33,441 bases of DNA, from the NCBI GenBank assembly GCA_016185955.1, contig JACPMQ010000071.1, forward strand, positions 1-33,441. The letters run 5' to 3'. The notes below the pieces were generated by a model. The model searched no databases. It had not been told where the DNA came from and was given only the letters and a program-made list of their open reading frames with translations. Below are positions 837 to 30,230 of this stretch, piece by piece (within the stretch, counting starts at the first letter, position 1; each line of letters starts with the position of its first letter). The stretch comes from Candidatus Woesearchaeota archaeon. Its GTDB lineage: Archaea; Nanobdellota; Nanobdellia; Woesearchaeales; GW2011-AR4. The position numbers and the translations under genes were made by a program.

Positions 837-851
837 AAAATAAATAAAAAA

Positions 852-1340
852 ATGAGTTACAATTATTCAATGAAGGATTATTCAAAGGAAAACATGGCAA
901 GAGCAATAGGAATATCTCTGCCTATATCCTTTAAGCAAAGTGTGGAGATATGCAACTATATAAGGAACAAAAAATTAAGCCGTGCAAAGGATGTGCTTAA
1001 CAAAGCGATAAATCAGCAAAAGGCTATTCCATTTAGAAGATTTAATGACAATACCGGGCATAAAAAAGGAATTGGCCCGGGAAAATATCCGAAAAAGGCA
1101 TCATTGGAAATTTTAAAGCTGATTGATAGTGTGGAGGCAAATGCGCAGTTCAAGGGCATGAGCACAGCAAATTTGGTTATAAAGCACATTAATGCAAATA
1201 TAGCCTCGCGCATGCTGCATTCCGGCAGAAAACGTGGCAGAAAGTTCAAGAGGACTAATATAGAGATAGTTGTTGAAGAAAAAGCTGATGTTAAGAAAGA
1301 GTATAAGCGTCATAAGCCAAGAGCAAAACAAAATGATTGA
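852..1340 (+). CDS. rpl22: 50S ribosomal protein uL22
   Basis: AIPFRRFN..GHKKGIGPGKYPKKASLEILKLIDSVEANAQFKG is the archaeal uL22 pattern. Operon position supports it. Confidence 0.9.
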   Translation: MSYNYSMKDYSKENMARAIGISLPISFKQSVEICNYIRNKKLSRAKDVLNKAINQQKAIPFRRFNDNTGHKKGIGPGKYPKKASLEILKLIDSVEANAQFKGMSTANLVIKHINANIASRMLHSGRKRGRKFKRTNIEIVVEEKADVKKEYKRHKPRAKQND

Positions 1341-2019
1341 AAGAAAATTTGTCGCGCAGAAAATAAAGGAGTTCCAGATTGAGGAATATATAGCTAATAA
1401 TTTAAAGAATGTAGGGCATAGCCATACAAAAATGGTTAAGACCCCTTTAGGAGAAAAGATTGTAGTTTATGCATCAAGGCCCGGGCTTGTAGTCGGAAGA
1501 AAGGGGCAAAATATAAAAGAGCTTACAAAGACGCTTAAAAAGGGATTTGGATTGGAAAATCCGCAGATAGAAATAAGCGAGGTGCAGAATGCAAATTTGG
1601 ATGCCAATATAGTTGCTGAGAGGATTACCGACTCATTGGAAAGGTATGGAGCCCAGAAGTTTAAGGCAATCGGGCATAAGATGATGGAAAGCATTATGGC
1701 ATCAGGCGCATTAGGAGTTGAAATAATAATAAGCGGAAAAATACCAAGCAGCAGGGCAAAATCATGGAGATTTTACTCCGGCTATCTTAAGAAATGCGGC
1801 GATATTTCGATTATGGCTGTTGACAAGGCATATGCGCAAGCAAAATTAAAAAGCGGCGTAATAGGGGTTAAGGTAAGCATTATGCCTGCTGGAACAAAGT
1901 TGCCGGACAAAGTAGAGTTTATTGAAGAAAAGGAGGAAAAAGTAGAGGAAGTTAAGGAAAACGCTAATGAACTAAAAGATGAAGTAAAAGATGAAATAAA
2001 TAAAAATGAAAGCAAATGA
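1333..2019 (+). CDS. rps3: 30S ribosomal protein uS3 with K/E-rich C-terminal tail
   Basis: KH-domain motif LVVGRKGQNIKELTK. The ATG at 1333 (MIERKFVAQKIKE...) overlaps the uL22 stop. The longer ORF start at 1270 lies inside uL22, so I did not use it. Confidence 0.9.
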   Translation: MIERKFVAQKIKEFQIEEYIANNLKNVGHSHTKMVKTPLGEKIVVYASRPGLVVGRKGQNIKELTKTLKKGFGLENPQIEISEVQNANLDANIVAERITDSLERYGAQKFKAIGHKMMESIMASGALGVEIIISGKIPSSRAKSWRFYSGYLKKCGDISIMAVDKAYAQAKLKSGVIGVKVSIMPAGTKLPDKVEFIEEKEEKVEEVKENANELKDEVKDEINKNESK

Positions 2020-5234: not shown

Positions 5235-5627
5235 ATGACATTAAATGATCCATTGGCAAACACGCTCTCCATTATTTTAACAGACGAGAAAATGGGAAAG
5301 AAAGAAAGCAATATAGCACCTTCTTCAAAGATTATTAAGAAGGTTCTTGAAGTGATGAAAGCTGCTAATTACATAACTAATTTTCAGGAGATAAATGATG
5401 GAAGAAGAAACTCGCTTAAAATAAGCCTTTCTGGCAACATAAACAAGTGCGGAGTTATAAAACCAAGGTATAATGTCAAAAAAGACGGATTTGAAAAGTT
5501 TGAAAAGAGATATTTGCTGGCAAGGGGCATGGGAATACTGGTAGTATCAACACCTTTAGGGATATTTACCCATACAGAAGCAAAAAAGAAAAATATTGGC
5601 GGCAGGCTTTTAGCCTACTGTTATTAA
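5235..5627 (+). CDS. rps8: 30S ribosomal protein uS8
   Basis: MTLNDPLANTLSIILTDEK...GGRLLAYCY. ATG at 5235; the ORF-track start at 5214 is a TTG. Confidence 0.88.
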   Translation: MTLNDPLANTLSIILTDEKMGKKESNIAPSSKIIKKVLEVMKAANYITNFQEINDGRRNSLKISLSGNINKCGVIKPRYNVKKDGFEKFEKRYLLARGMGILVVSTPLGIFTHTEAKKKNIGGRLLAYCY

Positions 5628-5647
5628 AATTATTAAAAATATTAAAA

Positions 5648-6208
5648 ATGGAAAACAGCGAAAGCAAAAACAAAGAGCTGGAAATTGAAATTAAATTAAA
5701 AGATAATGTAGATGCTTATTTAGACAAAAGAGTATTAGCTATAAAAGGCCCTAAAGGGGAATTAAAGAGAGACATTTCGGACAAAAACATTTTTATGAAA
5801 ATTGATGGCAAGCTAATTACAATGAAGGCAAAATTCAACAAAAAAAACAAGAAGGTTATAAAATCATATGCGGCTCATATAAAAAATATGATTAAAGGCT
5901 CATTAGAAGAGCACGAGTATCTTTTAAAAATATGTTCGGGGCATTTTCCAATGAATGTTTCTGTGAGCAAAGACTCTCTTATTGTAAAAAATTTTCTTGG
6001 GGAAAAGGTTCCAAGAGTGCTTAAATTAAAGCCCGGAGCAGCAGTTAAAGTTGAGAATGATAAACTTATAGTAAGAAGCCCGAGCAAAGAGATTGCTGGA
6101 CAGGTAAGCGCAGACATAGAGCAGCTTACAAGAAGAACTAGATATGATTTAAGGGTTTTTCAGGACGGCATATGGATAATATCAAAGGACGGGGAAGAAT
6201 TAAAATAA
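5648..6208 (+). CDS. rpl6: 50S ribosomal protein uL6
   Basis: Two-domain uL6-like sequence (LAIKGPKGELKRD...; VKNFLGEKVPR...) in the expected operon position. Confidence 0.88.
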   Translation: MENSESKNKELEIEIKLKDNVDAYLDKRVLAIKGPKGELKRDISDKNIFMKIDGKLITMKAKFNKKNKKVIKSYAAHIKNMIKGSLEEHEYLLKICSGHFPMNVSVSKDSLIVKNFLGEKVPRVLKLKPGAAVKVENDKLIVRSPSKEIAGQVSADIEQLTRRTRYDLRVFQDGIWIISKDGEELK

Positions 6209-7858: not shown

Positions 7859-8653
7859 ATGGAAAATAAGGAAGAACACCAAGCTGAAGAAGAGCTGGTA
7901 GTGCTAAAGAAAGAAGAGCTTGAAGAGGAAAAAATAGAAGCAGCAATACCTCGCGGACAGTTTAATAAGGAGAGCTGGAAACCTAAAACATCGTTAGGCT
8001 TAAAAGTCAAGTCTGGAGAGATTAACAGCATTGAGTATATACTTGATAATAGGCTAAAGATTTTAGAGCATGAAATTGTAGACGCATTAATACCAAATCT
8101 AATTGTTGACCTTTTGCTTGTTGGGCAATCAAAGGGAAAATTTGGAGGAGGTCAAAGAAGAGTTTTTAGGCAGACACAAAAAAAGACTGAAGAAGGCAAT
8201 AAGCCAAGGTTTGGAACATTTGCGGTAATAGGAAATGGAAATGGTTATGTAGGCATAGGATATGGAAAAAGCAAAGAAACAGTGCCTGCTAGGGAAAAGG
8301 CAATAAGAAATGCAAAGAAAAACATCATTAAGATTTTGAGAGGATGTGGAAGCTGGAAATGCAGCTGCAAGACAGCGCATAGTGTCCCATTCACTGTTGA
8401 GGGTAAATGCGGTTCTGTAGTGTTAAAACTTATGCCGGCTCCAAGAGGCACAGGACTCTGCATTGAAAATGAATGCGCAAAGCTGCTTAGGATTGCAGGC
8501 ATAAAAGATGTGTGGTCACAGGCATCAGGACAAACAAGGACAAAAACGAACTTGGTTTATGCATGTTTTGATGCATTAAGAAAGCTTATTGAAGTTAAAT
8601 TGCAGGAAGAAACTATTCGAAATTTGGGAGTTATAGAAGGGCGTATTGGCTAA
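7859..8653 (+). CDS. rps5: 30S ribosomal protein uS5 with acidic N-terminal extension
   Basis: RFGTFAVIGNGNGYVGIGYGKSKETVPAREKAIRNAKKNII is the uS5 core. The N-terminus is E/K-rich (MENKEEHQAEEELVVLKKEELEEEK). Confidence 0.9.
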   Translation: MENKEEHQAEEELVVLKKEELEEEKIEAAIPRGQFNKESWKPKTSLGLKVKSGEINSIEYILDNRLKILEHEIVDALIPNLIVDLLLVGQSKGKFGGGQRRVFRQTQKKTEEGNKPRFGTFAVIGNGNGYVGIGYGKSKETVPAREKAIRNAKKNIIKILRGCGSWKCSCKTAHSVPFTVEGKCGSVVLKLMPAPRGTGLCIENECAKLLRIAGIKDVWSQASGQTRTKTNLVYACFDALRKLIEVKLQEETIRNLGVIEGRIG

Positions 8654-8654
8654 A

Positions 8655-9041
8655 ATGAGCAGTGAAAAAATTGCAGTTATTAGGATAAGGGGGCTTACTG
8701 GAGTGAGGCATGATATTGACGCCACGCTTAAAAAGTTAAGGCTCTATAAAAAAAATTACTGTGTTGTTTTGCCTAAGACTAAAGATTACCTGGGCATGGT
8801 AAACAAGATTAAGGATTATGCCACTTGGGGCGAAATTGATGAAGATACTTACAATTTGTTGTTGGAAAAAAGAAAGGAAAAATCTGCAAAACCAAATGGA
8901 GAACAGATAAAGAAATTTTTCAGATTAAATAGCCCCAAAAAGGGATATGGCAGGAAAGGAATAAAAGTTGCGTTCGGCAACGGCGGCGCTTTAGGCTACA
9001 GGGAAAATAAGATTAACGAGCTTATAGCGAGGATGGTATAA
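8655..9041 (+). CDS. rpl30: 50S ribosomal protein uL30
   Basis: IAVIRIRGLTGVRHDIDATLKKLRLYKKNYCVV. ATG at 8655 just after the uS5 stop; the ORF-track start at 8646 is a TTG. Confidence 0.88.
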   Translation: MSSEKIAVIRIRGLTGVRHDIDATLKKLRLYKKNYCVVLPKTKDYLGMVNKIKDYATWGEIDEDTYNLLLEKRKEKSAKPNGEQIKKFFRLNSPKKGYGRKGIKVAFGNGGALGYRENKINELIARMV

Positions 9042-11856: not shown

Positions 11857-11891
11857 AACACTAAAAATCTGCAAGGCAGATTTTTAGTGTT
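11857..11891. repeat. F2 hairpin copy a (AACACTAAAAATCTGC-AAG-GCAGATTTTTAGTGTT)
   Basis: Perfect 16-bp inverted repeat with a 3-nt loop, 4 nt after the tRNA 3' end. Confidence 0.85.
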
Positions 11892-11919
11892 TTGCAATAA
11901 CTATCCATTTTTAAATAAA

Positions 11920-14552: not shown

Positions 14553-16080
14553 AATGCCTGAAAAGCCTTATCCCTGTAAAGACCATTGCCATATTATGCT
14601 CATCAACAGCTTCTATCACTTCTTTGTCCCTTATCGAGCCGCCTGGCTGTATTATTGCAGTAATTCCTGCTTTTGCAGCCTCATCAATTCCATCTCTAAA
14701 AGGGAAGTATGCATCAGAAGCCATCACTGCATTTTTTGTCTTTTCTTTTGCTTTTGAAATGGCAATCTTAACTGCATCTACTCTTGACATCTGGCCGGCG
14801 CCAATGCCAACTGTTGCATTGCCTTTAGCCAAAACAATTGAATTGGACTTAACGTGCTTGTTGACCTTAAATGCAAACAGCATTGTTTTTATCTCTTCTT
14901 TTGTCGGCTTTCTTTTACCGACGATTTTTAAGTTTTTTTCCTTTATGTCGGGATATTCTCTTGTTTGCATTAATAATCCGCCAACAACCTTTTTTAGCTC
15001 ATATCCTTCTAAGCTTTTTGTTGCATTTCCGGTTTCCAAAAGCCTTATGTTCTTCTTTTTCTTTAAAATTAAAAGCGCATCTTTCTCAAATTTAGGGCAT
15101 GCAATTATTTCCACAAATAACGGGCTTATTACTTTTGTAATCTCAATATTGCATGGGCGATTTAACGCTATGACGCATCCAAATGCTGATAAAGGATCAG
15201 CTTCATAAGCCATTTTGAATGCATCTTCTATTTTATTCGCAATTGCTGCTCCACTGGGATTGGTATGCTTTACAATGACAGCAGCAGGCTCATTAAATTC
15301 CTTTACAAGCTCAAATGCATTATCAACATCAAGTATGTTATTGAATGAAAGCTGTTTTCCGTGCAATTGCTTTGCATTTCCAGCACAGCTCTCGTATACA
15401 AACTGCTCCTTATAGAAGGCAGCCTTTTGATGAGGGTTTTCTCCATACCTTAAATCCTGCATTTTCTTAAAAGTTAAGTTTAATATATCCGGAAATTCAT
15501 TTTTTCCAAAAGATTTGTTAAGATACTGATTTATTGTTGCGTCATATCTTGCGCTATGCGCAAAAGCCTTTAATGCCAGCTCATCCCTTAAGCTTTTGCT
15601 TATTCCTCCTTTTTTTAGCTCTTCTATAACGCGCTTATAGTCATCTGGCTCAATAATTACTGCAACAAACTCATGATTTTTTGCAGCAGCCCTTAGCATT
15701 GAAACTCCACCTATATCAATATTTTCAATTGCTTCTGCAAAACTGGCATTTTTTGCTACTGTTTCCTCGAACGGGTATAAATTAACAGCAACAATATCTA
15801 TAGCATCTATTTTATTGTTTTTTAATTCTTGGAGATGTTTTTTATTGTTCCTTAATGCTAAAATGCCTGCATAAATCTTCGGATGCAGGCTTTTTACTCT
15901 TCCATCTAACATTTCTTTGCTTTTTGTGTAATCAGAGACAAGAGTTATAGGAATCTTATTTTCTTTCAGCAGCTTTGCAGTTCCTCCTGTTGACAATATT
16001 TTTATTCCTAATTTATGCAATTCTTTTGCGAATTCTACTATACCTCTCTTATTTGAGACAGATATTAATGCGGTTTTCAT
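14551..16080 (-). CDS. purH: Bifunctional AICAR transformylase / IMP cyclohydrolase
   Basis: 509 aa. N-terminal MGS-like domain ALISVSNKRGIVEFAKELHKLGIKILSTGGTAKLL, and C-terminal AICARFT region ending FRH. Confidence 0.9.
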   Translation of the reverse strand: MKTALISVSNKRGIVEFAKELHKLGIKILSTGGTAKLLKENKIPITLVSDYTKSKEMLDGRVKSLHPKIYAGILALRNNKKHLQELKNNKIDAIDIVAVNLYPFEETVAKNASFAEAIENIDIGGVSMLRAAAKNHEFVAVIIEPDDYKRVIEELKKGGISKSLRDELALKAFAHSARYDATINQYLNKSFGKNEFPDILNLTFKKMQDLRYGENPHQKAAFYKEQFVYESCAGNAKQLHGKQLSFNNILDVDNAFELVKEFNEPAAVIVKHTNPSGAAIANKIEDAFKMAYEADPLSAFGCVIALNRPCNIEITKVISPLFVEIIACPKFEKDALLILKKKKNIRLLETGNATKSLEGYELKKVVGGLLMQTREYPDIKEKNLKIVGKRKPTKEEIKTMLFAFKVNKHVKSNSIVLAKGNATVGIGAGQMSRVDAVKIAISKAKEKTKNAVMASDAYFPFRDGIDEAAKAGITAIIQPGGSIRDKEVIEAVDEHNMAMVFTGIRLFRH

Positions 16081-16081: not shown

Positions 16082-16693
16082 CTATTCCAAAATTTCTGCT
16101 TTGCTGTTTTTTACTACTATTTTGCTTTCGCCAAATAATTTTATTCCCTTAATTATAATTTCCTGCTCTGCTTTCTGCACTTTTTCCTTTAAGCTCCCTG
16201 CAGTCTCATTTTTATCAATATTAACTTTTTTTTGCAGTATTATTGGCCCTGAATCAACATTTTCATCGACAAAATGCAATGTGCAACCAGTAAATTTAAT
16301 TCCTGATTTTAAAACAGCTGCATGCACATCCATGTCCATGCTACCGGCAAAATCCGGCAGTAAAGAAGGATGTATATTCATCAGCCTGTTTTTCCATTTG
16401 GTTACAAAACTATTGCTTAAAATTCTCATGTAGCCTATAAGCAGCACTAAATCAACATTATGCTTATCAAGAACTTTATTCACTTCATTATCAAATTCTT
16501 CTCTTTTTAGTCCTTTTGGATTTACAAAAACAGCATCTATATTATGCTTTCTTGCTCTTTCAAGAGCATAGGCATCTTCTTTGTTGCTTATAACAATAGA
16601 AATCCTCGCATCTAATTTTTTGGATTCTATGGCATCAATTATAGCCTGCATATCTGTTGCCCTTGTAGAAGCCAAAATTCCCAGCTTAATCAC
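16082..16693 (-). CDS. purN: Phosphoribosylglycinamide formyltransferase
   Basis: LGILASTRATDMQAIIDAI..., GYMRIL...NIHPSLLP.F.G and GCTLHFVD...DSGPII are PurN formyltransferase motifs. GTG start. Confidence 0.88.
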   Translation of the reverse strand: MIKLGILASTRATDMQAIIDAIESKKLDARISIVISNKEDAYALERARKHNIDAVFVNPKGLKREEFDNEVNKVLDKHNVDLVLLIGYMRILSNSFVTKWKNRLMNIHPSLLPDFAGSMDMDVHAAVLKSGIKFTGCTLHFVDENVDSGPIILQKKVNIDKNETAGSLKEKVQKAEQEIIIKGIKLFGESKIVVKNSKAEILE

Positions 16694-16819
16694 AAAACCA
16701 CCGGTAAGAAAAAGAATATAGGGGTGTTTATAAATTTATGTTTTAAATAGGAAACATTTTACTATGCCTTTTTTGCATCTTTTTGAGAAGCTTTTTTCCG
16801 AATGGTTTATATATAAATC

Positions 16820-16859
16820 AAAACACTAAAAAATCTGCAAGACATATTTTTAGTGTTTT
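16820..16859. repeat. F2 hairpin copy b (degenerate inner stem)
   Basis: AAAACACTAAAAAATCTGCAAGACATATTTTTAGTGTTTT. The outer 13 bp pair and the inner part has diverged from copies a and c. Confidence 0.75.
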
Positions 16860-16873
16860 GCGGTGGAATTTTT
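16860..16873. repeat. F1 half-site (3' arm only, GCGGTGGAATTTTT)
   Basis: Matches the 3' arm of F1 copy f, but no 5' arm is present. It directly abuts F2 copy b. Confidence 0.6.
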
Positions 16874-18084: not shown

Positions 18085-18990
18085 ATGGTAGAATTTTTAC
18101 AAAAAAAATTAGGGCATGAAAAACTTATTCTTCTGAAAATTTTTTCTTACAGCTGTATGAATTGTCTGAGGTCTTTTGCATTTATAAGAAAAATAAATGA
18201 TAAGTACAGGAAATATGGATTAATAACAGTTATTGTACATCCTCCTGAATGGAAATTTGAAAAGAAAAAAAGCAATGTGCTTTGCGCATTAAAAAAGTAT
18301 AATATTAGGATTCCAATAATAATTGACCGAAATAAGAAAGTTATAGAAAAGCTTGGAATAGATTTCTGGCCAGCGCAGATATTGCTAAAAACGAATTTTC
18401 CGCCGCTCATAGAGCGGTGGAAATTTCGTTGTGGTAAAACAAAAGCCAAGCCGATGAAAGGCAAAAATGCGAAACCGATAAATGGCACATTTGTAAAAAT
18501 TGCCTATAAGCATATTGGAGAAGGAAATTACAAAGAGCTGGAAAATAAAATAATAAAGCTCTTAAAAATAAATCCCGATAAGGTATTTAAAAAAGTATTC
18601 AGAAAAGAGCCGAGCTACAGCAAATTTCCAAGCGTGTATTGCGGCAAAAGAAAAAATGGAAAAATAAAACTATTGGGGCAAAAAATAAAATTAAAATTTA
18701 ATGTTATTTATACTGATAAGAATTGGATTCAAAGGCAGGAATATATTAAATCAGTAGCTGATAAAGCTTCTTTAGAAATTGCCTCAAAAGGCAGGATAAT
18801 AAATTTTGTTGCAGAATCTCTGTTACAAAAAAAAATAAAAGTGGATGTGAAAGTAAATAATTATATAAAAACAATAATGGTGGGCAAGCCAAGGCTATAT
18901 ACGCTTATTGAATTAAAATCCAGTAAACTAAATAAGCTAAGGCTAATATCAGATCCTAATTTGGCAATATACTCATTTTCATTCCAATGA
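18085..18990 (+). CDS. Thioredoxin-fold (TlpA/redoxin-like) CxxC protein with C-terminal domain of unknown function
   Basis: LLKIFSYSCMNCLRS (CxxC after a beta strand) ... IPIIIDRNKKVIEKLGIDFWPAQILL ... VKIAYKHIGEG follows the redoxin topology. The roughly 160-aa C-terminal part is not recognisable. Confidence 0.5.
   Translation: MVEFLQKKLGHEKLILLKIFSYSCMNCLRSFAFIRKINDKYRKYGLITVIVHPPEWKFEKKKSNVLCALKKYNIRIPIIIDRNKKVIEKLGIDFWPAQILLKTNFPPLIERWKFRCGKTKAKPMKGKNAKPINGTFVKIAYKHIGEGNYKELENKIIKLLKINPDKVFKKVFRKEPSYSKFPSVYCGKRKNGKIKLLGQKIKLKFNVIYTDKNWIQRQEYIKSVADKASLEIASKGRIINFVAESLLQKKIKVDVKVNNYIKTIMVGKPRLYTLIELKSSKLNKLRLISDPNLAIYSFSFQ
18391..18429. repeat. F1 hairpin copy embedded in frame in the thioredoxin-fold CDS
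   Basis: ACGAATTTTCCGCCGCTC-ATA-GAGCGGTGGAAATTTCGT. 17 of 18 arm positions pair (one G-T wobble, one T-T mismatch). It starts at codon position 1 and spans exactly 13 codons (TNFPPLIERWKFR). The sequence is close to intergenic copies d and f. Confidence 0.75.
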
Positions 18991-20346: not shown

Positions 20347-20385
20347 AAACAAATTTTCCACCGTTCTATGAGCGGCAGAATTTTT
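20345..20385. repeat. F1 hairpin copy d (AAATTTTCCACCG-TTCTATGA-GCGGCAGAATTTTT)
   Basis: The stem is imperfect (about 9 of 13 positions pair), but the sequence including the TCTATGA loop is close to copy a. It lies between convergent genes and overlaps the last base of the ecfT stop. Confidence 0.7.
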
Positions 20386-20644: not shown

Positions 20645-20670
20645 GATTATTTAAATTTTTGTAAAAATAG

Positions 20671-20874
20671 TAACTGCTAACATAGATTTGTCCGAGAAGC
20701 AGGGTTTTTGCGAAAGTTTAATTTAGTGCTTGTGCGGAGCCTTATACTCCTCTCAACTTCGCAACATTTCATGTTGCTCAGGTCGCTTATCACAATCCTA
20801 CGGAGTTTTCTGAATTGGCAAATACGCACAAGCACCGACTTTCGCAAAAACCCTTTATGCTGTGTTAGCAGTTA
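20671..20874. repeat. Element A: 204-nt three-tier foldback (candidate structured RNA or MITE-like palindromic element)
   Basis: 20671-20682 pairs with 20863-20874 (12/12), 20702-20717 with 20838-20853 (16/16), and 20726-20736 with 20825-20835 (11/11). The 88-nt core contains the hairpin GCAACAT-TTC-ATGTTGC. Element B is a paralogue. Confidence 0.8.
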
Positions 20875-21586
20875 TGAAAATATCCCCTTCCATTATTTTT
20901 TTAATTTTGCCATTATCCAGCTTTAACAGTAAGTTGCAGTCTTTGTCTATGCCAATTGCTTTGCCTGCATATTCTCCTTCTAAAGTCTTTGCCTTTACCC
21001 ATTTGCCTATTGTATGCGAAGATTTTTTCCAGAGATTGGTGATTTTAAGGCAATCATGTTTTTCATAATAGGCATATAGCCGCTGAAATTCCCTTATTAT
21101 AAATTTTGCCGCTGTTTTAACTTCAAATTGCTTATTACATTCTATTTTTAATGATGTGGCTTTTTCCATAATAATTTTCGGAAATTTTTTCTGGTTTATG
21201 TTAAGCCCTATGCCAATGATTGCATAAGTTTTTTTGCCGTGCAAAATTTCTGTTAAAATGCCGCATACCTTCTTGCCATTTACTAAAACATCATTGGGCC
21301 ACTTTACCATTCCATTTAATCCTGACAAGGATTTTATTGATTTTGAAACAGCTAAAGAAGCGATTAGTGTGAGGTATTTAATTTTGTCGGAGTTTTTTTC
21401 TTTGAGGAGAATTGTCATGTATAATCCTCCTGAACTAGAGCTCCATTTTCTGTTAAAGCGGCCTCTGCCTTTTGTCTGCCTTTCAGCTATAACTACTAAG
21501 TTAAAATTACCCTTTTCAGCAAAAGTTTTGGCCTTATCATTAGTGGAAGAAACAGTATTGTAATTATAAAGCTGAAAGTTTGGCAT
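20855..21586 (-). CDS. birA: Biotin--[acetyl-CoA-carboxylase] ligase (catalytic and C-terminal domains, no N-terminal HTH)
   Basis: ERQTKGRGRFNRKWSS (GRGRxGR biotin-binding loop), KWPNDVLVNGKKVCGIL and GIGLNIN. At 243 aa it is a class I ligase without a repressor domain. Confidence 0.88.
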   Translation of the reverse strand: MPNFQLYNYNTVSSTNDKAKTFAEKGNFNLVVIAERQTKGRGRFNRKWSSSSGGLYMTILLKEKNSDKIKYLTLIASLAVSKSIKSLSGLNGMVKWPNDVLVNGKKVCGILTEILHGKKTYAIIGIGLNINQKKFPKIIMEKATSLKIECNKQFEVKTAAKFIIREFQRLYAYYEKHDCLKITNLWKKSSHTIGKWVKAKTLEGEYAGKAIGIDKDCNLLLKLDNGKIKKIMEGDIFITANTA

Positions 21587-23499
21587 TAAGACTCACTGTT
21601 TTGTATTGCTTCCTGCCTTGCTGCCATTACCCACGGGCTTACCTTATTGTTGCTATTGTTGCTATAAGACTTTTTTTTCTCAAGATATTTTGAAACTGCG
21701 GTTGTAACAAGAAGTATTTTCTGCTCACTTGCCAGCTCTTTTTTTTGCTCCGTATACTCATTTACATATTCAAGTATATTATTCTTCTGTATGAAGGATG
21801 TTGACACATGTCCTCTGATGAAATTTTTGTTGTTTAAAACTGCCAAATGGAAAGGTATTGTTGTCTTGATTCCTGCAATAGTGTACTCTTTTAAGGCTCC
21901 TATCATTTTTGTGATTGCTTCCTGCCTCGTGTTTCCATGGCATATAAGCAAAGATAGCAATGAATCGTAATGTGGCAGCACTTTATAGCCTTGATAGCAT
22001 ATGCTGTTTACCCTTATTCCTGGTCCTCCAGGCGCAAGATAATTAGTAATTGCGCCCATTGACGGATAAAAGTTGTTTGATGGGTCTTCTCCATTTATTC
22101 TGCATTCAATTGCCCAGCCATCCAGCTTTATGTCTTCTTGCTTAAACGCAAGCTTTGCGCCAGAAGCAAGCTTAATCTGCTCTTTAACAAGGTCTACTCC
22201 AGTTACCATCTCTGTTACGCCATGCTCAACTTGAATTCTTGTGTTCATCTCTATAAAATAAAAATTCTTGTTTTTATCAAGTAAAAACTCTACTGTGCCT
22301 GCGCCTTCATATTTTGCTGCTGATGCCACTTTAAGGGCAGTTTCTCCCATTTTTGCCCTTAGTTCATCACTTAATGCAGGGCTTGGAGATTCTTCTACAA
22401 GCTTTTGGTGCTTTCTCTGTATGCTGCAATCCCTTTCCCCTAAATGTATAACATTGCCGTACCTATCAGCTAATATTTGAAATTCTATATGGCGTGGCTC
22501 CTCTATATACTTCTCCATGTATAGGGATTTATCGTTAAAAGACATATAAGATTCTGCTTCAGCATTTTCATAAGCCCTTTCCAGCTTTTCCATTACTCTT
22601 ACGATGCGCATTCCTTTGCCGCCGCCGCCAGCAGCTGCTTTTATTATCACTGGCAGCCCAATTTTCTTAGCAACGTTAAATGCGTGCTTTTTATTTTTTA
22701 ATGGGGTTGTTGTGCCTTCTATAACCTTAACTCCTGCCTTTGATGCTGTTTTTTTTGCCATAACCTTATCTCCCAAAAGCCTAATTGTTTTTGAAGATGG
22801 TCCTATAAATTTAATGCCATTCTTCTCGCATAATCTTGCAAACTTGTAATTCTCTGCTAAAAAGCCATAACCAGGATGTATTGCATCCACCTTTACCCTT
22901 TTTGCAATCTTTATTATCTTATTAGTGTCAAGATAGCTTATCGCGGAGCCTATGCAATATTTTTTATCAGCAAATTTTATTGAGAGGGTGTTTTTGTCAG
23001 GAGTTGAGTAAACTAATACTGTTTCTATTCCAAGCTCTCGGCATGCCCTAATAACCCTCAATGCTATTTCTCCGCGATTTGCTATCAAAACCCTGTTAAA
23101 CTTTTTCTCCTTTGAGAGAAAGGTGTAATCCTTTTCACTAATGCTTAATCCCTTGGCTACCATGTCAAGAAAACTCTGTGAAGACTTGCTAGCCACTATT
23201 TTTTTGATTTCCCTTTCACCCATAGCAGGAACCTTTTTTATTATATTTGAGGTTATTACATCCCCTATCTCAGCTAAATCCGTTCTTTCGACAATCTTTT
23301 TGCTCTTGGCAATTGAAACAAAATTATTTTTAAAAAATTCCTCTACTTCATTATAAACCAATGGCGCTGCCTTTTTTATGCCGCTGAACAGCTTCTTAGC
23401 ATAATTATAAGAATAGCCAACAGGAATCAGGCTCTTATTTAGGGAAGATAACAGCATATTCCTGACATCCTGAGCTATACTTTTGTTTTTCTTTGCCAT
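21586..23499 (-). CDS. accC: Biotin carboxylase (AccC / PycA-type ATP-grasp) with a roughly 130-aa N-terminal and roughly 60-aa C-terminal extension
   Basis: The core starts at RVLIANRGEIALRVIRACRELGIETV, followed by GYGFLAEN, IIKAAAGGGGKGMRIV, EEPRHIEFQILADRYGNVIHLGERDCSIQRKHQKLVEE and FIEMNTRIQVEH. Residues 1-130 and the C-terminal tail have no recognisable motif. Confidence 0.9.
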   Translation of the reverse strand: MAKKNKSIAQDVRNMLLSSLNKSLIPVGYSYNYAKKLFSGIKKAAPLVYNEVEEFFKNNFVSIAKSKKIVERTDLAEIGDVITSNIIKKVPAMGEREIKKIVASKSSQSFLDMVAKGLSISEKDYTFLSKEKKFNRVLIANRGEIALRVIRACRELGIETVLVYSTPDKNTLSIKFADKKYCIGSAISYLDTNKIIKIAKRVKVDAIHPGYGFLAENYKFARLCEKNGIKFIGPSSKTIRLLGDKVMAKKTASKAGVKVIEGTTTPLKNKKHAFNVAKKIGLPVIIKAAAGGGGKGMRIVRVMEKLERAYENAEAESYMSFNDKSLYMEKYIEEPRHIEFQILADRYGNVIHLGERDCSIQRKHQKLVEESPSPALSDELRAKMGETALKVASAAKYEGAGTVEFLLDKNKNFYFIEMNTRIQVEHGVTEMVTGVDLVKEQIKLASGAKLAFKQEDIKLDGWAIECRINGEDPSNNFYPSMGAITNYLAPGGPGIRVNSICYQGYKVLPHYDSLLSLLICHGNTRQEAITKMIGALKEYTIAGIKTTIPFHLAVLNNKNFIRGHVSTSFIQKNNILEYVNEYTEQKKELASEQKILLVTTAVSKYLEKKKSYSNNSNNKVSPWVMAARQEAIQNSES

Positions 23500-23517
23500 G
23501 TGAGATTTATTCCTTGT

Positions 23518-23549
23518 AAAAATTCCGCTATTGCGAACGCGGAATTTTT
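23518..23549. repeat. F1 hairpin copy e (AAAAATTCCGC-TATTGCGAAC-GCGGAATTTTT)
   Basis: Perfect 11-bp arms in the spacer between the carboxyltransferase and accC genes. Confidence 0.8.
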
Positions 23550-23580
23550 ACCAGTTATGTTGGTAAGCCCTGCACTACGA

Positions 23581-23617
23581 AACACTAAAAAATCTGCAAA
23601 GCAGATTTTTTAGTGTT
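23581..23617. repeat. F2 hairpin copy c (AACACTAAAAAATCTGC-AAA-GCAGATTTTTTAGTGTT)
   Basis: Perfect 17-bp inverted repeat that overlaps the carboxyltransferase stop codon (23616-23618). Confidence 0.85.
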
Positions 23618-25124
23618 ATAATGGCATATTCCCATGCTTCTTTGCAGGCATTCTTTCCCTTTTTGATAGAAGAGTTTCCAAACAGCTAATTAAGGTTTTC
23701 CTTGTGTCCTTTGGCTCTATTATTATATCCACCTTACCATACTTGGCTGCTGCATAAGGGTTTAGAAATTTTTCATTATATTCTTTAATCCTTTCATTTT
23801 TTATTTTGGCTCCATTATTCCCTTTAAGCTCTTTTCTGAATATGAGATTAATTGCTTGCTCTGCGCCCATAACAGCTATTTCTGCATCAGGCCATGCAAT
23901 TACCGCATCAAAGCCCATTTCCTTTGAAACCATTGCAATGTAAGCTCCCCCATAAGCTTTCCTCATAACAAGGCTTATTTTAGGGACAACAGCTTCGGAA
24001 TATGCATAAAGGACTTTTGCTCCATGCCTTATTATGCCATTATGCTCTTGCTCAACTCCCGGCAAGTAGCCGGTAACATCAACAAGATTTATCAAAGGTA
24101 TGTTAAAGCAATCGCAAAATCTTACAAACCTTGCTATTTTGTCAGAGCTGTTTATATCAAGGCAGCCAGCCAATATTTTTGGCTGATTGGCTACAATGCC
24201 AACAACATTATTGTTTAGCCTTGCAAAGCCAACAACAGCGTTAGGAGCATATAATGGATGTATCTCAAAAAATGTGTTTTTATCCACAATTTCCTCTATG
24301 ACTTCCTTTACATCATAGCTTTTTTTTGTGTCTTTAGGGATTATGTCCTTTAGCTTGTTATTCAGCCTTTCTGCATTATCATGCGCATTCAAAAAAGGCG
24401 GACTTTCCAAATTATTTTGCGGCAGATAGCTCAGTAAAAATCTAATTAGCTCAACGCATTCCTTTTCGTCTTCTGCAACAAAATGCGCAACGCCGCTTTT
24501 TTGGTTATGAGCTAAAGTCCCGCCAAGAGACTCAAAGTCTATGCTTTCACCTGTTATTGTTTTTATAATATCCGGGCCGGTTATAAACATATAGCTGACT
24601 TTTTTTGTCATAAAAATGAAATCGGTTAAAGCCGGGCTGTAAACAGCAATGCCTGCGCAAGGTCCCAGTATAGCTGATATTTGCGGAATTACTCCAGACG
24701 CTAATGTGTTATTTTTGAATATTAAGCCACCGGAATCAAGGCTGTTAATGCCTTCTTGGATTCTAGCGCCTCCGGAATCCAGCAAACCGACAATTGGGCA
24801 GCCTGTTTTTAGGGCATGCTCCATTATTGATGATATTTTTTTGTTGTGCATTTCCCCCATAGAGCCACCGATAAAGGCAAAGTCTTGGGCATATACACAT
24901 ACTTGCCTTCCATTAATTTTTGCATAGCCCGTTATTACTCCGTCTCGCGGCATTTTTTTTTCCTGCAATCCATAATCATGGCTTCTAAGCTCCATAAACT
25001 CATTTACCTCAACAAAAGAGCCTTTGTCTACTAAAAGCTCTATCCTTTCTTTTGCAGTTAATTTTCCCTTTTCACGCTGCATTTTGATTGCTTCTTTGTC
25101 TTTTTTAGGCGTATTTTTTGTCAT
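23616..25124 (-). CDS. Acyl-CoA carboxylase carboxyltransferase subunit (propionyl-CoA carboxylase beta / methylmalonyl-CoA decarboxylase alpha family)
   Basis: 502 aa with two crotonase-like halves. Motifs LTAKERIELLVDKGSF.E, VYAQDFAFIGGSMGEMH, LLDSGGARIQEG, RKAYGGAYIAM and AWPDAEIAVMGAEQA. Confidence 0.9.
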   Translation of the reverse strand: MTKNTPKKDKEAIKMQREKGKLTAKERIELLVDKGSFVEVNEFMELRSHDYGLQEKKMPRDGVITGYAKINGRQVCVYAQDFAFIGGSMGEMHNKKISSIMEHALKTGCPIVGLLDSGGARIQEGINSLDSGGLIFKNNTLASGVIPQISAILGPCAGIAVYSPALTDFIFMTKKVSYMFITGPDIIKTITGESIDFESLGGTLAHNQKSGVAHFVAEDEKECVELIRFLLSYLPQNNLESPPFLNAHDNAERLNNKLKDIIPKDTKKSYDVKEVIEEIVDKNTFFEIHPLYAPNAVVGFARLNNNVVGIVANQPKILAGCLDINSSDKIARFVRFCDCFNIPLINLVDVTGYLPGVEQEHNGIIRHGAKVLYAYSEAVVPKISLVMRKAYGGAYIAMVSKEMGFDAVIAWPDAEIAVMGAEQAINLIFRKELKGNNGAKIKNERIKEYNEKFLNPYAAAKYGKVDIIIEPKDTRKTLISCLETLLSKRERMPAKKHGNMPL

Positions 25125-25177
25125 AGCAACATCAAAGGCATGCTAAACAGGGATGTTTAAAAAGGTTTTGTAAAAAT

Positions 25178-25187
25178 TTTTAAATAA
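25178..25187 (+). promoter_or_regulatory. TATA-like box (TTTTAAATAA) upstream of the DUF460 gene
   Basis: Centred about 24 nt upstream of the ATG at 25207 in a divergent spacer. Position-based guess. Confidence 0.35.
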
Positions 25188-25206
25188 AGAAATATATTGC
25201 TGTCTG

Positions 25207-26400
25207 ATGGAAAAAAGGCTTCTTGTTGTCGGAATTGACCCTGGGACTACATTAGGCTATGCTGCGCTTGATTTGAACAAAGAGGTTATGGCATTAAAAT
25301 CCTCAAAAAACTTTGGATTGAATGAATTGCTTTTGGACATAACAAAAATAGGCAAAGTGATTGCAGTAGGCACAGACAAAGCAAAAATACCTCATTTAGT
25401 CCAGCTTTTTTCAGCCAAAACGGGGGCAAAAATCTTTCATCCAAACGATGATTTGAAGGCAGAGGAAAAGAAAAAATTGACGGAAAGCTTTGAAACTGCA
25501 AATTGGCACCAAAATGACGCATTAGCAAGCTCTCTTTTTGCATTTAACAACATAAAAGCCACTCTTGACAAGATTGAGGGCTTTGTTGAGGATAATAACA
25601 AAAATTCAATCAAGGAAAAGATAACTGAACTTGTGCTAGCTAAAGGGCTAAGCATAAAGGAAGCTGCCTCGCTTATAGAAAACAAGGATTCTGAGGAAAC
25701 TGAAATAATAAAGAAGGTAGTTGAAGAAAATAAGATGACCCAAAATGATTTTATGAGGCTTTACCGCATAATAAAAAGGCATGAAAGAGAAAATTATCTC
25801 CTTAAAAGGCAAAATAACAATCTTAAAAACTATGTTAAAGCTCTGGAAAAAAGGCTTAATTACGCAAAAAAAGAGCATAGTGAAGGTATTAGCAAGAAAG
25901 ATGGCAGAAATATCAAAGAAATTTTGCTGAAAGAAAAAGGCATTAATTTTCTTCAAAACAGATTAAATATGTCAGAAGAAGATGTAAAAAAATCCGCTTT
26001 AGACATTAAAAAGCTGAATTGCATGCTCTCAAAATGCAATAGCTCTTTTATATTAAAGAAATTAGACAACCTCGGCAGATTAGAGTTTGAAAGGAAAAAA
26101 GAATTGCTTAACATAGAAAAAGATGATATTCTTCTTGTAGAAAACCCAAGCATAATAAGCGAAAATGTCATGGCATTTTTAAAAGACAAAGTCAGCATTA
26201 TACTTACAAAAAACCCTATAAGCGGCAAAATAAGGGAAAAATATTCCTTTTCGTTTGTAGATTGTAAAAAAATAAGGATGGAAGATGGTGATTTTTTTGC
26301 TATTGCGCCAAAAAAAGAAATTCAGGAGCTGTTAAAAGATAGCAATGTCCTAAAAATGCTAATAGAAGATTATAAAAAGCACAGAGAAGGTAACTGCTAA
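25207..26400 (+). CDS. DUF460 / COG2433-like protein: N-terminal RuvC/YqgF (RNase H fold) nuclease-like domain plus coiled coil
   Basis: LLVVGIDPGTTLGYAALDL...VIAVGTDK resembles the first RuvC/RNase-H acidic motif (GIDPG). The middle is heptad-rich (LLKRQNNNLKNYVKALEKRLNYAKKEH). The last four codons lie in element B. Confidence 0.6.
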   Translation: MEKRLLVVGIDPGTTLGYAALDLNKEVMALKSSKNFGLNELLLDITKIGKVIAVGTDKAKIPHLVQLFSAKTGAKIFHPNDDLKAEEKKKLTESFETANWHQNDALASSLFAFNNIKATLDKIEGFVEDNNKNSIKEKITELVLAKGLSIKEAASLIENKDSEETEIIKKVVEENKMTQNDFMRLYRIIKRHERENYLLKRQNNNLKNYVKALEKRLNYAKKEHSEGISKKDGRNIKEILLKEKGINFLQNRLNMSEEDVKKSALDIKKLNCMLSKCNSSFILKKLDNLGRLEFERKKELLNIEKDDILLVENPSIISENVMAFLKDKVSIILTKNPISGKIREKYSFSFVDCKKIRMEDGDFFAIAPKKEIQELLKDSNVLKMLIEDYKKHREGNC

Positions 26401-26654
26401 TAGAACTATTATCCGAAAAGATGGGTTTTTGCGAATTCTTATTCGTGCTTGTGCGGAGCCTTAACTACGAAAATTCCACCGCTTTTGCGGTGGAATTTTC
26501 GCAATGACAAAAACGATAAACCACGCATTTGGCATCGTTTTGCCTTAACCACGGCTTGTCACTATCAAATTGCGCACAAGCACTGAATTCGCAAAACCCA
26601 TCTTAAGGCTTTGTCATGGCACAGACGGACTTGTCGGACAAAGCTCTGTTAGCA
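26391..26654. repeat. Element B: 264-nt multi-tier foldback paralogous to element A, carrying an internal F1 hairpin
   Basis: 26418-26438 pairs with 26585-26604 (20 bp plus one bulged T). 26445-26455 pairs with 26573-26583 (11/11, identical sequence to A). The outer pairing is 26395-26407 with 26643-26654. Internal hairpins are 26468-26501 (15 bp) and AAAACGAT/ATCGTTTT. Confidence 0.8.
26468..26501. repeat. F1 hairpin copy f (CGAAAATTCCACCGC-TTTT-GCGGTGGAATTTTCG), nested in element B
   Basis: Perfect 15-bp stem with a 4-nt loop. Confidence 0.85.
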
Positions 26655-26672
26655 TATACTTTCCATGTAAAC

Positions 26673-26682
26673 CTTTATAAAT
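26673..26682 (+). promoter_or_regulatory. TATA-like box (CTTTATAAAT) upstream of the MoxR-like gene
   Basis: Centred about 34 nt upstream of the ATG at 26712 and downstream of element B. Position-based guess. Confidence 0.35.
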
Positions 26683-26711
26683 TTCTATGGCTTACATACC
26701 TATTTTTAAAA

Positions 26712-27644
26712 ATGATAAGCCAAGAATTAAGTGATATATTATTGGGCAGGAATGAGCCTTTTGATGAAATAATCGGGCAAGATCCAGTAAAATTAGCTGT
26801 AAAGTCTGCATTATTGTCCAATAGACACATAGTATTAGTTGGCGCTCCGGGAATTGGAAAAACTACGCTGGCAAAAAATATAGCAAAGCTCATCGGCAAA
26901 AAAACTCCTTTTGTCAGAATTCAGGGCAGTCCAGACTTAACCGTAGAAGATTTATTAGGAGATATTGATCCAATTAAGGCTTTGAAATATGGGCCTTTAA
27001 GCATTGAAGCATTCACAAAAGGCAAAATCTTTAAAGCTGATAAGGGAGTATTGTTCTTTGATGAATTAAATAGATGCCCTGAAAAGGTGCAGAACGCTCT
27101 TCTGCAGGTTTTAGAGGAAAAAAAGGCTACTATAGCAAGCTATGACGTTGATTTTGATGTTGATTTTGTGTTCATAGCAACAATGAACCCAGAAGATTCT
27201 TCAACGGAAAAGCTTTCAGATGTTCTTTTAGACAGGTTTGATTTAATATACATGAATTATCCTGAAACAATAGAAATAGAAAAGCAAATAGTATTAAAAA
27301 AAGGCAAAAGGCTTAATGACGCAAAAGTAAGTGACAATCTTTTGGAAATTATGATATATTTTATAAGATTGCTGCGGGAAGACAAAAACCTTGAAAAGAA
27401 GCCTTCTGTGAGGGCTTCCATAGGATTGTATGAGAGGTCGCAGTCAAACGCAATTTTAAATGGCAGAAAAACAGCAACTCTTGAAGACTTAAAGTGCGTT
27501 GTTGTTTCAGTTCTCGCGCATAGAATAAGGCTAAAGCCATCTGTGAAATATCTCCAAGCTGCAGAAACTTATATAAGCAGCCAGTTTGAAAAAAATATTT
27601 TGGATAATGATGCATTAGAAGAAAAAACAGGTGATTTACTTTGA
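26712..27644 (+). CDS. MoxR/ChlI-type AAA+ ATPase
   Basis: Walker A LVGAPGIGKTTLAK, Walker B VLFFDELNR and sensor region FIATMNPED...LLDRFD. I chose the ATG at 26712 (MISQELSD...), because the ORF-track start at 26616 lies inside element B. Confidence 0.85.
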   Translation: MISQELSDILLGRNEPFDEIIGQDPVKLAVKSALLSNRHIVLVGAPGIGKTTLAKNIAKLIGKKTPFVRIQGSPDLTVEDLLGDIDPIKALKYGPLSIEAFTKGKIFKADKGVLFFDELNRCPEKVQNALLQVLEEKKATIASYDVDFDVDFVFIATMNPEDSSTEKLSDVLLDRFDLIYMNYPETIEIEKQIVLKKGKRLNDAKVSDNLLEIMIYFIRLLREDKNLEKKPSVRASIGLYERSQSNAILNGRKTATLEDLKCVVVSVLAHRIRLKPSVKYLQAAETYISSQFEKNILDNDALEEKTGDLL

Positions 27645-29586: not shown

Positions 29587-30195
29587 ATGAAACTTTTAGC
29601 ATTCACGGATTTGCACTTGTCATCTAATGCGTTCAAGAAAATCAAATCAAAGGCAAAAAGCGAAAATCCCGAATTATTGGTATGCGCAGGGGATATTTCT
29701 ATTTTCGAGCAGGGCATCGATTTTATGCTCAATAAGCTGAATAAGCTCAAGAAAAAAATATTGATGATAAACGGCAACCATGAGAATGCGAGCATACTTA
29801 AAAAATTGTGCAGAAAATACAAGAATATAATTTTTATCCACAAAAAATATTATAAGCATAACAATCATGTTTTTTTAGGTTATGGCGGCAGCGGATTTTC
29901 ATTAATAGAGCCGGATTTTTACAAAACAGCAAAATATTTTAAAAAAGTAATAAATAGAAACAGGAATAAAAAAATAATTTTGGTGACGCATGCTCCGCCT
30001 TACAAGACAAAACTTGATTTAATAGTGGGGAGCCATTGCGGCAACAAAACTCTAAGAAGGTTTATAGAGAAAAATAAAATTGATTTGAATATATGCGGGC
30101 ATTTGCACGAGAATTTTGGAAAAAGGGACTATATAAAAAAAACTTTTATTATAAATCCGGGTCCTTATGGGAAGATGATAAAAAATTTGCAATGA
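29587..30195 (+). CDS. Calcineurin-like metallophosphoesterase
   Basis: Motifs in order: FTDLH, AGDIS, NGNHEN, VTHAPP and GHLHE. Confidence 0.8.
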   Translation: MKLLAFTDLHLSSNAFKKIKSKAKSENPELLVCAGDISIFEQGIDFMLNKLNKLKKKILMINGNHENASILKKLCRKYKNIIFIHKKYYKHNNHVFLGYGGSGFSLIEPDFYKTAKYFKKVINRNRNKKIILVTHAPPYKTKLDLIVGSHCGNKTLRRFIEKNKIDLNICGHLHENFGKRDYIKKTFIINPGPYGKMIKNLQ

Positions 30196-30230
30196 CACTA
30201 ATCACACTAATCGCAGATTTTTTAGTGTCC
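30194..30230. repeat. F2 hairpin copy d (degenerate 5' arm with CACTAATC duplication)
   Basis: GACACTAATCACACTAATC-GCAGATTTTTTAGTGTC. The 3' arm is intact, and the 5' arm keeps only GACACTAA plus TCGC. It lies between convergent genes and touches both stop codons. Confidence 0.7.

Follow-up and report, generated by a model that had tools for sequence, protein, structure and literature searches.

The subject of this work is a pair of repeated elements, A (20670-20875) and B (26390-26654), both on the plus strand of a 33,441-nt stretch of DNA from a Candidatus Woesearchaeota archaeon (contig JACPMQ010000071.1; the whole stretch is called the window), whose layout had been predicted, from the letters of the sequence, to be that of a gene cassette or of elements that insert at or reshape gene 3′ ends. 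We consider it probable that A and B represent a previously undescribed gene for a structured RNA, which would have been duplicated and which lies against the 3′ ends of genes in a compact genome.

As originally predicted, two elements of the same orientation stand about 5.5 kb apart, and both a reading of the sequence and pattern searches confirm it: they are direct copies of 206 bp (A) and 265 bp (B), with 5720 bp from start to start and 5514 bp in between. Over the 5′ portion of some 75 nt they are 80% identical (61 of 76 columns), and these 5′ halves hold exact blocks of 19 nt (GTGCTTGTGCGGAGCCTTA) and 13 nt, the 19-mer having exactly two matches in the window where 0.00 would be expected by chance; the cores are just 46% identical, and the 3′ parts have helix strands in common. 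The motif GTAACTGCTAA begins at 20670 and at 26390, and an inverted copy with one mismatch occupies 20865-20875. Both elements fold as long hairpins, A with −80.3 kcal/mol (z = −7.2 against shuffled controls) and B with −121 kcal/mol (z = −12.2), and their reverse strands fold with equal stability. The parts referred to in what follows, in which "family" means the related loci described below, are these:

20670-20685, plus strand: 5′ outer arm of A, GTAACTGCTAACATAG, pairing with 20859-20875 (fold and pattern search)
20686-20701, plus strand: unpaired 5′ spacer of A, ATTTGTCCGAGAAGCA (fold)
20702-20717, plus strand: 5′ strand of the basal stem P0 of A, GGGTTTTTGCGAAAGT, family-wide and covarying
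20718-20725, plus strand: conserved 5′ bulge of A, directly after the P0 strand
20726-20736, plus strand: 5′ strand of helix P1 of A, GTGCTTGTGCG, nearly invariant across the family
20737-20825, plus strand: conserved core of A, with GGAGCCTTA, CTCTCAACTTCGCA, the covarying hairpin, TGCTCAGGTC, AATCCTACGGA and TTGGCAAATA (alignments A2, A3 and A7)
20826-20836, plus strand: 3′ strand of P1 of A, CGCACAAGCAC
20838-20853, plus strand: 3′ strand of P0 of A, GACTTTCGCAAAAACCC
20859-20875, plus strand: 3′ outer arm of A, GCTGTGTTAGCAGTTAT, whose minus strand encodes the BirA tail I-T-A-N-T-A
26390-26422, plus strand: 5′ outer arm of B with its extension, GTAACTGCTAATAGAACTATTATCCGAAAAGAT
26423-26438, 26439-26444 and 26445-26455, plus strand: P0 5′ strand, bulge and P1 5′ strand of B
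26456-26572, plus strand: divergent core of B, retaining GGAGCCTTA and CAAATTG (which matches GGCAAATTA of the family)
26468-26501, plus strand: hairpin of the TTCCACCGC..GCGGTGGAA family, inside the core of B
26573-26583 and 26585-26599, plus strand: P1 3′ strand and P0 3′ strand of B
26600-26654, plus strand: 3′ extension of B, with an extra hairpin between basal stem and arm and, at 26644-26654, the outer arm CTCTGTTAGCA, a partial complement only

An RNA gene is supported by the conservation of this architecture in other genomes. Public genome and metagenome collections were scanned with the 18-mer common to A and B (GTGCTTGTGCGGAGCCTT) as search key, which gave 12 loci from GTDB genomes and 37 from metagenomes; the true members are two of the former (in the Woesearchaeota metagenome-assembled genome (MAG) FT1_083 and in archaeon ARS102) and 21 of the 37 latter, all on contigs of 31-39% GC. 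The 3′ partner CGCACAAGCAC lies 98-172 nt downstream in every true member not clipped by a contig end, locus L048 carrying CGCATAAGCAC in its place, and it accompanies none of the remaining 18-mer matches, which are on contigs of 42-66% GC. The family loci align with A along its whole length (alignment A2) and follow one order from 5′ to 3′: a 16-bp P0 (consensus GGGGUUGUUGCGAAAnUC / GAnUUUCGCAACAACCCC), a bulge that is usually CUARUUC, the nearly invariant 11-bp P1 (GTGCTTGTGCG/CGCACAAGCAC), then GGAGCCUUA, followed by CUCUCAACUUCGCA, a hairpin and UGCUCAGGUC, then AAUCCUGCGGA and UUGGCAAAUUA, and finally the return strands. The covariance model R1, for which 11 sequences including A were used, matches A over its full length with 169.6 bits (cmsearch, E = 7e-42) and the other members with 91-194 bits, those that took no part in model building reaching 91-167 bits, and it finds members without the 18-mer, one at 1022-1222 of contig L050 and a diverged one at 16187-16393 of L064. 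B scores 64.2 bits, to which P0, P1, GGAGCCTTA and CAAATTG are the only contributors, and its core is without the conserved motifs TGCTCAGGTC and AATCCTGCGGA; by these features B can be taken for a paralogue reduced to the scaffold. The family itself appears to be conserved in a clade of Woesearchaeota (DPANN archaea of the GTDB Nanobdellota/Woesearchaeales type), on about 20 other low-GC contigs. The GC fraction of the element is 0.40-0.53 against 0.31-0.39 for the host contigs, and members are 79-89% identical to one another, the host proteins being about 50-80% identical.

The second support comes from the pattern of substitutions. In an alignment of 19 sequences (A7), 96% of the cells form standard pairs, in eight pairs both partners have changed, a count that falls to 0-3 if they are displaced by 1-3 columns, and the covariation score is reached by none of 500 shuffles. 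P0 occurs in the variants GUU/AAC, GGU/ACC and UUU/AAA, the tip of the hairpin contributes four covarying pairs, and the diverged copy of L064 has changed G-C into A-U in P1 and U.G into C-G at the base of the hairpin; the unpaired motifs of the junction are conserved across the family as well. No assignment has been made of the helices that separate P2 from the hairpin (GCAU/AUGC, CAAU/AUUG, CUCU/GGAG), on which the evidence conflicts. Some copies are enlarged, at the tip of the hairpin or at a second site, by inserts of about 33-71 nt, whose lengths, not being multiples of three, argue against a coding region. These inserts are rich in GC and occupy two fixed sites (L031, L034 and L050 at the hairpin tip; L036 and L044; L035 and L046), related sequences, of which GCGGGCAAGCTCGTCTTGCTCGCTTGC is an example, being common to different contigs; they could represent either expansion segments or mobile hairpins of small size.

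Could the family be a highly diverged form of a universal RNA, that is, of 5S rRNA, of signal recognition particle (SRP) RNA, of RNase P RNA or of an odd tRNA? Core and P1 together measure some 113 nt and form a stem with two hairpin arms, superficially like 5S, and stable-RNA genes lie near some members, so close in L015 that the RNase P RNA is 360 nt away. Nevertheless, this origin is scarcely credible. At the gathering thresholds of Rfam 15 nothing matches the element in the window or in 13 further loci; at E <= 10 it is still unmatched in the window region, with 5S (RF00001), SRP (RF01857), RNase P (RF00373) and tRNA among the families concerned, and a 211-nt search with one homologue returned only noise; ARAGORN reports no tRNA in it. 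Moreover, a genuine archaeal RNase P RNA stands at 3205-3542 of L015 (minus strand, downstream of the element) and a genuine archaeal SRP RNA at 6699-6972 of L046 (minus strand, 2 kb from the element), and because the genuine molecules are on the same contigs as two members the family is neither of them. Infernal finds a canonical 5S rRNA in 203 of 208 complete Nanobdellota genomes, 123 Woesearchaeales among them (bioRxiv 10.64898/2026.05.13.725050), and since canonical 5S is thus detectable in these archaea the family is not a cryptic 5S either. In the literature, no description of such an RNA from DPANN or Woesearchaeota was found. We know of no nameable RNA to which the conserved motifs GGAGCCUUA, UGCUCAGGUC and AAUCCUGCGGA would correspond.

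Several other layouts were compared by eye and set aside: the three arms of 5S rRNA, a tRNA or permuted tRNA (suggested by a T-arm-like AGG-UCG..CAAU-CCU), K-turns, C/D and H/ACA boxes and the hammerhead core do not fit, and the motifs concerned are not conserved across the family; nor does the consensus structure, or any of the flank folds, contain the 3-nt/4-bp/3-nt motif of a bulge-helix-bulge. As an observation of its own, stable-RNA genes near the element in L015 and L046 may reflect a clustering.

The 18-mer is single on each contig, the longest measuring 322 kb, and across 16 loci no conserved gene neighbour was found: the neighbours are unrelated housekeeping genes, different in every genome (among them THUMP methyltransferase, CorA, S-layer protein, transketolase, RtcB, RFC, a Cas4-like nuclease, PGI, ribosomal protein L15e, glutamine synthetase, SOD, a XerC-like recombinase), and the nearby RtcB, XerC-like integrase, S-layer gene, MoxR/DUF58 and RNase P RNA are single cases. 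In L031 the gene of a XerC-like tyrosine recombinase (7945-8826, minus strand) ends 28 nt upstream of the RNA and in L056 that of RtcB (800-1927, minus strand) ends 330 nt upstream, each seen once. Co-directional downstream genes begin 47-122 nt past the stem, with the TFB-recognition element and TATA box (BRE/TATA) directly after the element, and upstream open reading frames (ORFs) end 9-66 nt ahead of the stem or within it. In the window, likewise, the promoter of the next gene, moxR, follows B directly. The true start of moxR is the ATG at 26712 (product of 310 aa), and therefore this gene does not overlap B; the TATA box upstream of A lies at a distance that fits the promoter of the divergent gene for a 75-aa protein.

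This arrangement invites the idea that the hairpins do not give rise to any RNA product and act mainly as terminators, insulators or stabilisers of mRNA 3′ ends, and indeed A and B are placed exactly at gene 3′ ends, just ahead of the next promoter, the hairpins are very stable, and two other families of palindromes are found at gene ends in the window. A terminator, however, needs neither a junction core of 90 nt conserved across genera nor an invariant 11-bp helix nor a covarying internal hairpin. Termination in archaea relies on oligo-T tracts, and T-runs of at least four follow about a third of the copies, on either strand; many copies, besides, are flanked by divergent gene starts and not by gene ends. 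We consider this alternative quite improbable.

The relation of the elements to the ends of genes is nonetheless close, and the genes in question are the following:

20855-21586, minus strand: birA, 243 aa, its last six codons and stop inside A
21586-23499, minus strand: accC, 637 aa
23588-23622: terminator-like palindrome between the carboxyltransferase gene and accC
23616-25124, minus strand: carboxyltransferase gene
25207-26400, plus strand: DUF460 gene, 397 aa, its last three codons and stop in the 5′ outer arm of B
26673-26714, plus strand: TATA-like box CTTTATAAAT and start codon of moxR

The Pfam assignments place BirA, AccC, the carboxyltransferase and DUF460 inside the bracket and BCCP, bioY, a thioredoxin-like gene, ecfA and ecfT directly upstream of A, in agreement with the statement that the remaining biotin genes (BCCP, bioY, EcfA, EcfT) lie just outside; moxR and a gene of the vWA/DUF58 type are directly downstream of B. 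The bracket had also been said to contain exactly two divergent transcription units. The divergence holds; the count is less certain, because the terminator-like palindrome at 23588-23622 would allow the minus-strand genes to form two units, and they may do so. Exact-protein look-ups for DUF460 and EcfT gave no match. AccC has, ahead of its biotin-carboxylase N domain, an uncharacterised N-terminal extension of about 130 aa, which is conserved, relatives being of like length (636-642 aa).

It had been claimed that birA and the DUF460 gene both end in the TAACTGCTAA arm, in different reading frames, so that the repeat supplies their C-termini and stop codons, and the sequence bears this out. 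On the minus strand birA closes, in the 3′ arm of A, with ATA ACT GCT AAC ACA GCA TAA, the TAA (20855-20857) falling in the spacer just ahead of the family-wide basal stem, 7 nt inward of the 3′ TAACTGCTAA copy (20865-20875); the DUF460 gene closes with GGT AAC TGC TAA, reading TAACTGCTAA in a different frame. The alignment of orthologues, which had been proposed as a check on whether the proteins normally end earlier, gave for BirA (n=14) 12 sequences ending in EGDIF(V/I)(V/I) and two with unrelated 5-residue extensions; orthologues are thus mostly four residues shorter than the protein of the window, which ends in EGDIFITANTA, its extra ANTA being encoded by the outer arm. Orthologues of DUF460 end in DYKKxR plus 2-9 variable residues, where the window has EGNC, the GNC and the stop coming from the arm. 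Hence both genes do take tail and stop from the repeat, although the effect is a small one, and in either strand of the arms two of the three frames contain TAA.

The overlap with gene ends is a recurrent property of the family, since L015, L017/L022 and L046 show the same: upstream ORFs terminate within the element in L015 and L017/L022, and in L046 a convergent ORF extends 15 nt into the 3′ strand before it stops. A THUMP methyltransferase (L015) and a 505-aa protein of unknown function (L017), which are unrelated, both have the tail EVGAK(A/I), at 4040-4066 of L015 and at 2279-2305 of L017, encoded by the 5′ strand of P0, with the UAA of the conserved bulge as stop codon.

The block between A and B had been likened to a cassette bounded by recombinogenic repeats. 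In favour of an integron- or island-like cassette with directly repeated recombination sites, or of repeats that drive excision, it can be said that the copies are direct, that their 75-nt 5′ segments are so alike, that the enclosed genes are functionally coherent, and that B sits at a DUF460/moxR junction rearranged with respect to two relatives. This idea is, in our opinion, largely refuted and its probability very small. Synteny in relatives speaks against it. In L059, L060 and L061, which carry the closest homologues of BirA on long contigs, the genes follow the order carboxyltransferase, BCCP, BioY, thioredoxin-like, EcfA, EcfT, 75-aa membrane protein, 0-3 small genes, BirA and AccC (L059 is without such small genes, L060 has a single thioesterase there and L061 has three, its contig ending at BirA). 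The window keeps this order from BCCP to AccC, its orf84 being the 75-aa gene, with A wedged between orf84 and birA, and R1 detects no element at the orthologous acc/bio loci of L059, L060 and L061. DUF460 lies between a riboflavin-kinase gene and NMD3 in L003 and L005, L003 and L059 being different contigs of one MAG; in L063 and L064 it is a nitroreductase gene that precedes moxR, no B-like element stands upstream of the latter, and DUF460 is 9 kb downstream and convergent. The bracketed 5.5 kb is therefore not a unit in any relative. The original prediction had held that orthologous loci with the same genes, no flanking repeats and identical C-termini would speak against a cassette; the same acc/bio genes do exist without repeats, whereas the C-terminus of BirA is not identical to that of its orthologues. 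Furthermore, the enclosed units are divergent with promoters of their own, no integrase, transposase or reverse transcriptase occurs among the 30 ORFs of the window that were scanned, and 19 nt is the longest perfect stretch common to A and B.

Rearrangement has nevertheless taken place in this region. The carboxyltransferase gene, which in L059, L060 and L061 is directly upstream of BCCP and co-directional with it, here comes after accC, having been moved and inverted with breakpoints elsewhere than at A and B; this counts further against a cassette, as the relocation coincides with other palindromes (16817-16861 and 23588-23622). The latter belong to a second palindrome family, AACACTAAAAATCTGCnnnGCAGATTTTTAGTGTT, with a stem of about 16 bp, found at 11857-11895, 16817-16861, 23588-23622 and 30195-30228, between genes and at their ends, two copies of which flank the sites of loss (upstream of BCCP) and gain (after accC) of the gene. 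A third family of small hairpins, AAATTTCCACCGC-loop-GCGGTGGAA, is present at 18398-18430 inside the thioredoxin-like ORF, at 20348-20380 right after the stop of ecfT, and at 26468-26501 inside the core of B.

The one observation on populations that could favour a cassette comes from a near-identical strain (SRR12113424, Logan assembly), in which three short-read contigs (L001, L002 and L062) all end inside A or B, 10 nt past the birA stop, 52 nt past the DUF460 stop and at 26631; A and B have no common 31-mer, though the contigs break there. These breaks could come from more near-identical copies in other parts of the genome of that strain, from strain variation or from poor coverage of hairpins, and they are the only possible sign of population-level variation.

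A more serious alternative is that of a low-copy mobile palindromic element, comparable to a miniature inverted-repeat transposable element (MITE), a Rickettsia palindromic element or a REPIN, which would spread within Woesearchaeota genomes and from one to another, would insert at or into gene 3′ ends bringing its own stops, and whose conserved arms would be recognition sites for a recombinase or transposase acting in trans. We regard it as unlikely, even if not negligible. It would account for the overlap of gene ends with at least five copies and the EVGAK(A/I) tails of unrelated proteins, for the identity of the RNA exceeding that of the host proteins, for the long terminal inverted arms (outer arm, P0 and P1) and for the GC-rich hairpin inserts of some copies. 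Against it stand, firstly, the scarcity of copies, one or two and not tens, and single on the contigs of up to 322 kb; secondly, the absence of any mobilising enzyme among the ORFs scanned and of a convincing target-site duplication, the AAAATA on each side of A being weak in AT-rich DNA and B having no such duplication; thirdly, the raised GC and the absence from IMG/VR viral contigs, where two patterns met only GC-rich chance matches; fourthly, positions that are stable within populations (L017 = L022; L031 = L042 = L057); and fifthly, an interior junction more conserved than the cargo of a transposon should be, with a hairpin that covaries. The two readings, RNA gene and mobile element, are in any case not mutually exclusive. 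In L050 there are two copies, at 1022-1222 (minus strand) and 5608-5823 (plus strand), inverted and 4.4 kb apart, one of them with a 50-nt insert in the 5′ bulge, flanking an S-layer-like gene and a polysaccharide-deacetylase gene, with a DDE transposase gene 3.7 kb off; local duplication is therefore not unique to the window.

Several facts weigh against an RNA gene, some of them being those that a mobile element would explain. The position varies among relatives: L064 has a family member between its orf171 homologue and dcd, a junction of 20 nt in the window and of 71 nt in L063, which has none. Two genomes, those of the window and of L050, have it in two copies a few kb apart, and it is repeatedly at gene 3′ ends; B is without two conserved core motifs and may be non-functional; and the exact 18-mer is present in only two of 185,579 GTDB species representatives. 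P1 and P2 are nearly invariant and offer scarcely any covariation outside L064, and the uniformity of the P1 5′ strand is in part a product of the search, since that very 18-mer was the key with which most homologues had been retrieved, while the covariation of the terminal arms would equally be expected of transposon ends that bind one protein. As for the strand, G.U pairs outnumber A.C by 34 to 11, with 20 of the 34 coming from one nearly invariant pair, and P0 alone, with five G.U and six A.C, is neutral; the TATA boxes downstream are those of the following genes, and neither the flanking TATA boxes nor the T-runs fix the strand, so that the plus strand is favoured weakly, by the hairpin.

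If we nonetheless accept an RNA gene, something of its history can be suggested. In addition to the parts common to the whole family, A and B have in common a 5′ extension of about 33 nt and, on the 3′ side, GCTNTGTTAGCA, and because the outer arm is common to both and is in no other member (it is, by the flank folds of the other loci, lineage-specific) the whole extended unit would have been duplicated within this lineage. The ancestral unit may have had a longer stem, of which A would have lost the 3′ part where birA abuts it; this is suggested by the spacer of A (TTTGTCCGAG), which is complementary to CTTGTCGGACAAAG on the 3′ side of B in an inverted repeat of 48 nt with 73% complementarity (I1), the complement of ATTTGTCCGAGAAGCA persisting only on that side of B (26630-26643). 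In addition, CATATACTTTC is found after B (26653-26663), after the L064 copy (~16409-16419) and at the RNA-free orf164/dcd junction of L063 (~15626-15636), a hint that B could descend from a copy once situated at the orf171/dcd junction.

The RNA-gene explanation would then be as follows. A and B would be paralogous copies of a stand-alone small-RNA gene of about 150-210 nt, in whose predicted transcript the two ends pair as a long terminal duplex formed by the 16-bp P0, a 5′ bulge of 6-8 nt (usually CUARUUC) and the 11-bp P1, lengthened in the window by the lineage-specific 16-bp outer arm. This duplex would bear a junction core of several helices, with sites where expansions are tolerated and one hairpin whose covariation is clear, the conserved junction being presumably the functional part and the duplex bringing the ends together. 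A would be the canonical copy; B would have kept the scaffold while its core was replaced or overwritten, and would be decaying or re-purposed. In a genome so compact, and with TAA in the arms, abutting ORFs would continue for a few codons in the stem until they meet a stop, whence the four residues added to BirA and the GNC tail of DUF460; the direct orientation and the 5.5-kb spacing would only reflect where the duplicate landed, the genes in between forming no transferable unit. What the sequences show is the anatomy of the elements, their membership of the family, its covariation, the lack of the element at orthologous loci and the longer C-terminus. Transcription, the plus strand, processing from or protection by the duplex, a protein-bound role as scaffold of a ribonucleoprotein (RNP) and the history of duplication are the parts of this proposal that we infer. 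More tentatively, and at somewhat less than even chances, A and its some 20 relatives could be an undescribed RNA of DPANN archaea of the Woesearchaeales type, the RNA subunit of an RNP, with the invariant 11-bp helix and the junction core on a terminal duplex of 27 bp or longer, which would at the same time be mobile at low copy number, its gene changing place and being duplicated from genome to genome, and routinely overlap and rewrite the C-termini of the proteins that it adjoins.

DPANN archaea have tiny genomes, and almost none of their non-coding RNAs have been studied experimentally. A structured RNA absent from Rfam 15 and conserved to the degree given above is a concrete candidate for a component still lacking from the known core machinery of these archaea; the covariance model and some 20 seed sequences make its copy number, spread, expression and partners testable. 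In terms of annotation, what appeared to be a biotin/acetyl-CoA-carboxylase cassette is corrected to an ordinary, rearranged housekeeping region, and several protein C-termini in these genomes would be encoded by the stem of an RNA gene.

Among the known systems, the imperfect palindromes attC of integrons resemble A and B in delimiting genes in direct orientation. The architecture of attC is one of 55-140 bp with a GTTRRRY/RYYYAAC core. The elements, in contrast, measure 206 and 265 bp, their termini GTTAGCA do not fit GTTRRRY, they are accompanied by neither IntI nor attI, and the genes enclosed are divergent, with promoters of their own, in a block that is no unit in the relatives. The palindromic repeats of the Rickettsia, Correia, enterobacterial repetitive intergenic consensus (ERIC) and REPIN types are closer, being palindromes of 100-250 bp with long hairpins, located at gene ends or within ORFs, which can add residues and stop codons to proteins; they differ in having tens to hundreds of copies and neutral interiors, whereas the element described here is archaeal, has one or two copies and a conserved core with a covarying internal hairpin, and is without a convincing target-site duplication or known mobilising enzyme. 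The processing stems of archaeal pre-rRNA and pre-tRNA also resemble it, in that the flanks form a long helix around a stable RNA, and those with a bulge-helix-bulge are signals of excision or circularisation in other archaeal RNAs; the junction of P0 and P1, unlike that motif, is a 5′ bulge of 6-8 nt opposite a single nucleotide. Lastly, the family can be compared with Y RNA/YrlA, the S-domain of SRP RNA and 6S RNA, from which it differs in being without covariance-model similarity to any Rfam family and without a linked Ro/TROVE, SRP54-type or other partner gene, but which it resembles in ends that pair in a long duplex with a conserved helix (here P1), in the hairpins of a distal junction, in tolerated inserts, and in being stand-alone, present in one or two copies, and GC-rich in an AT-rich genome.

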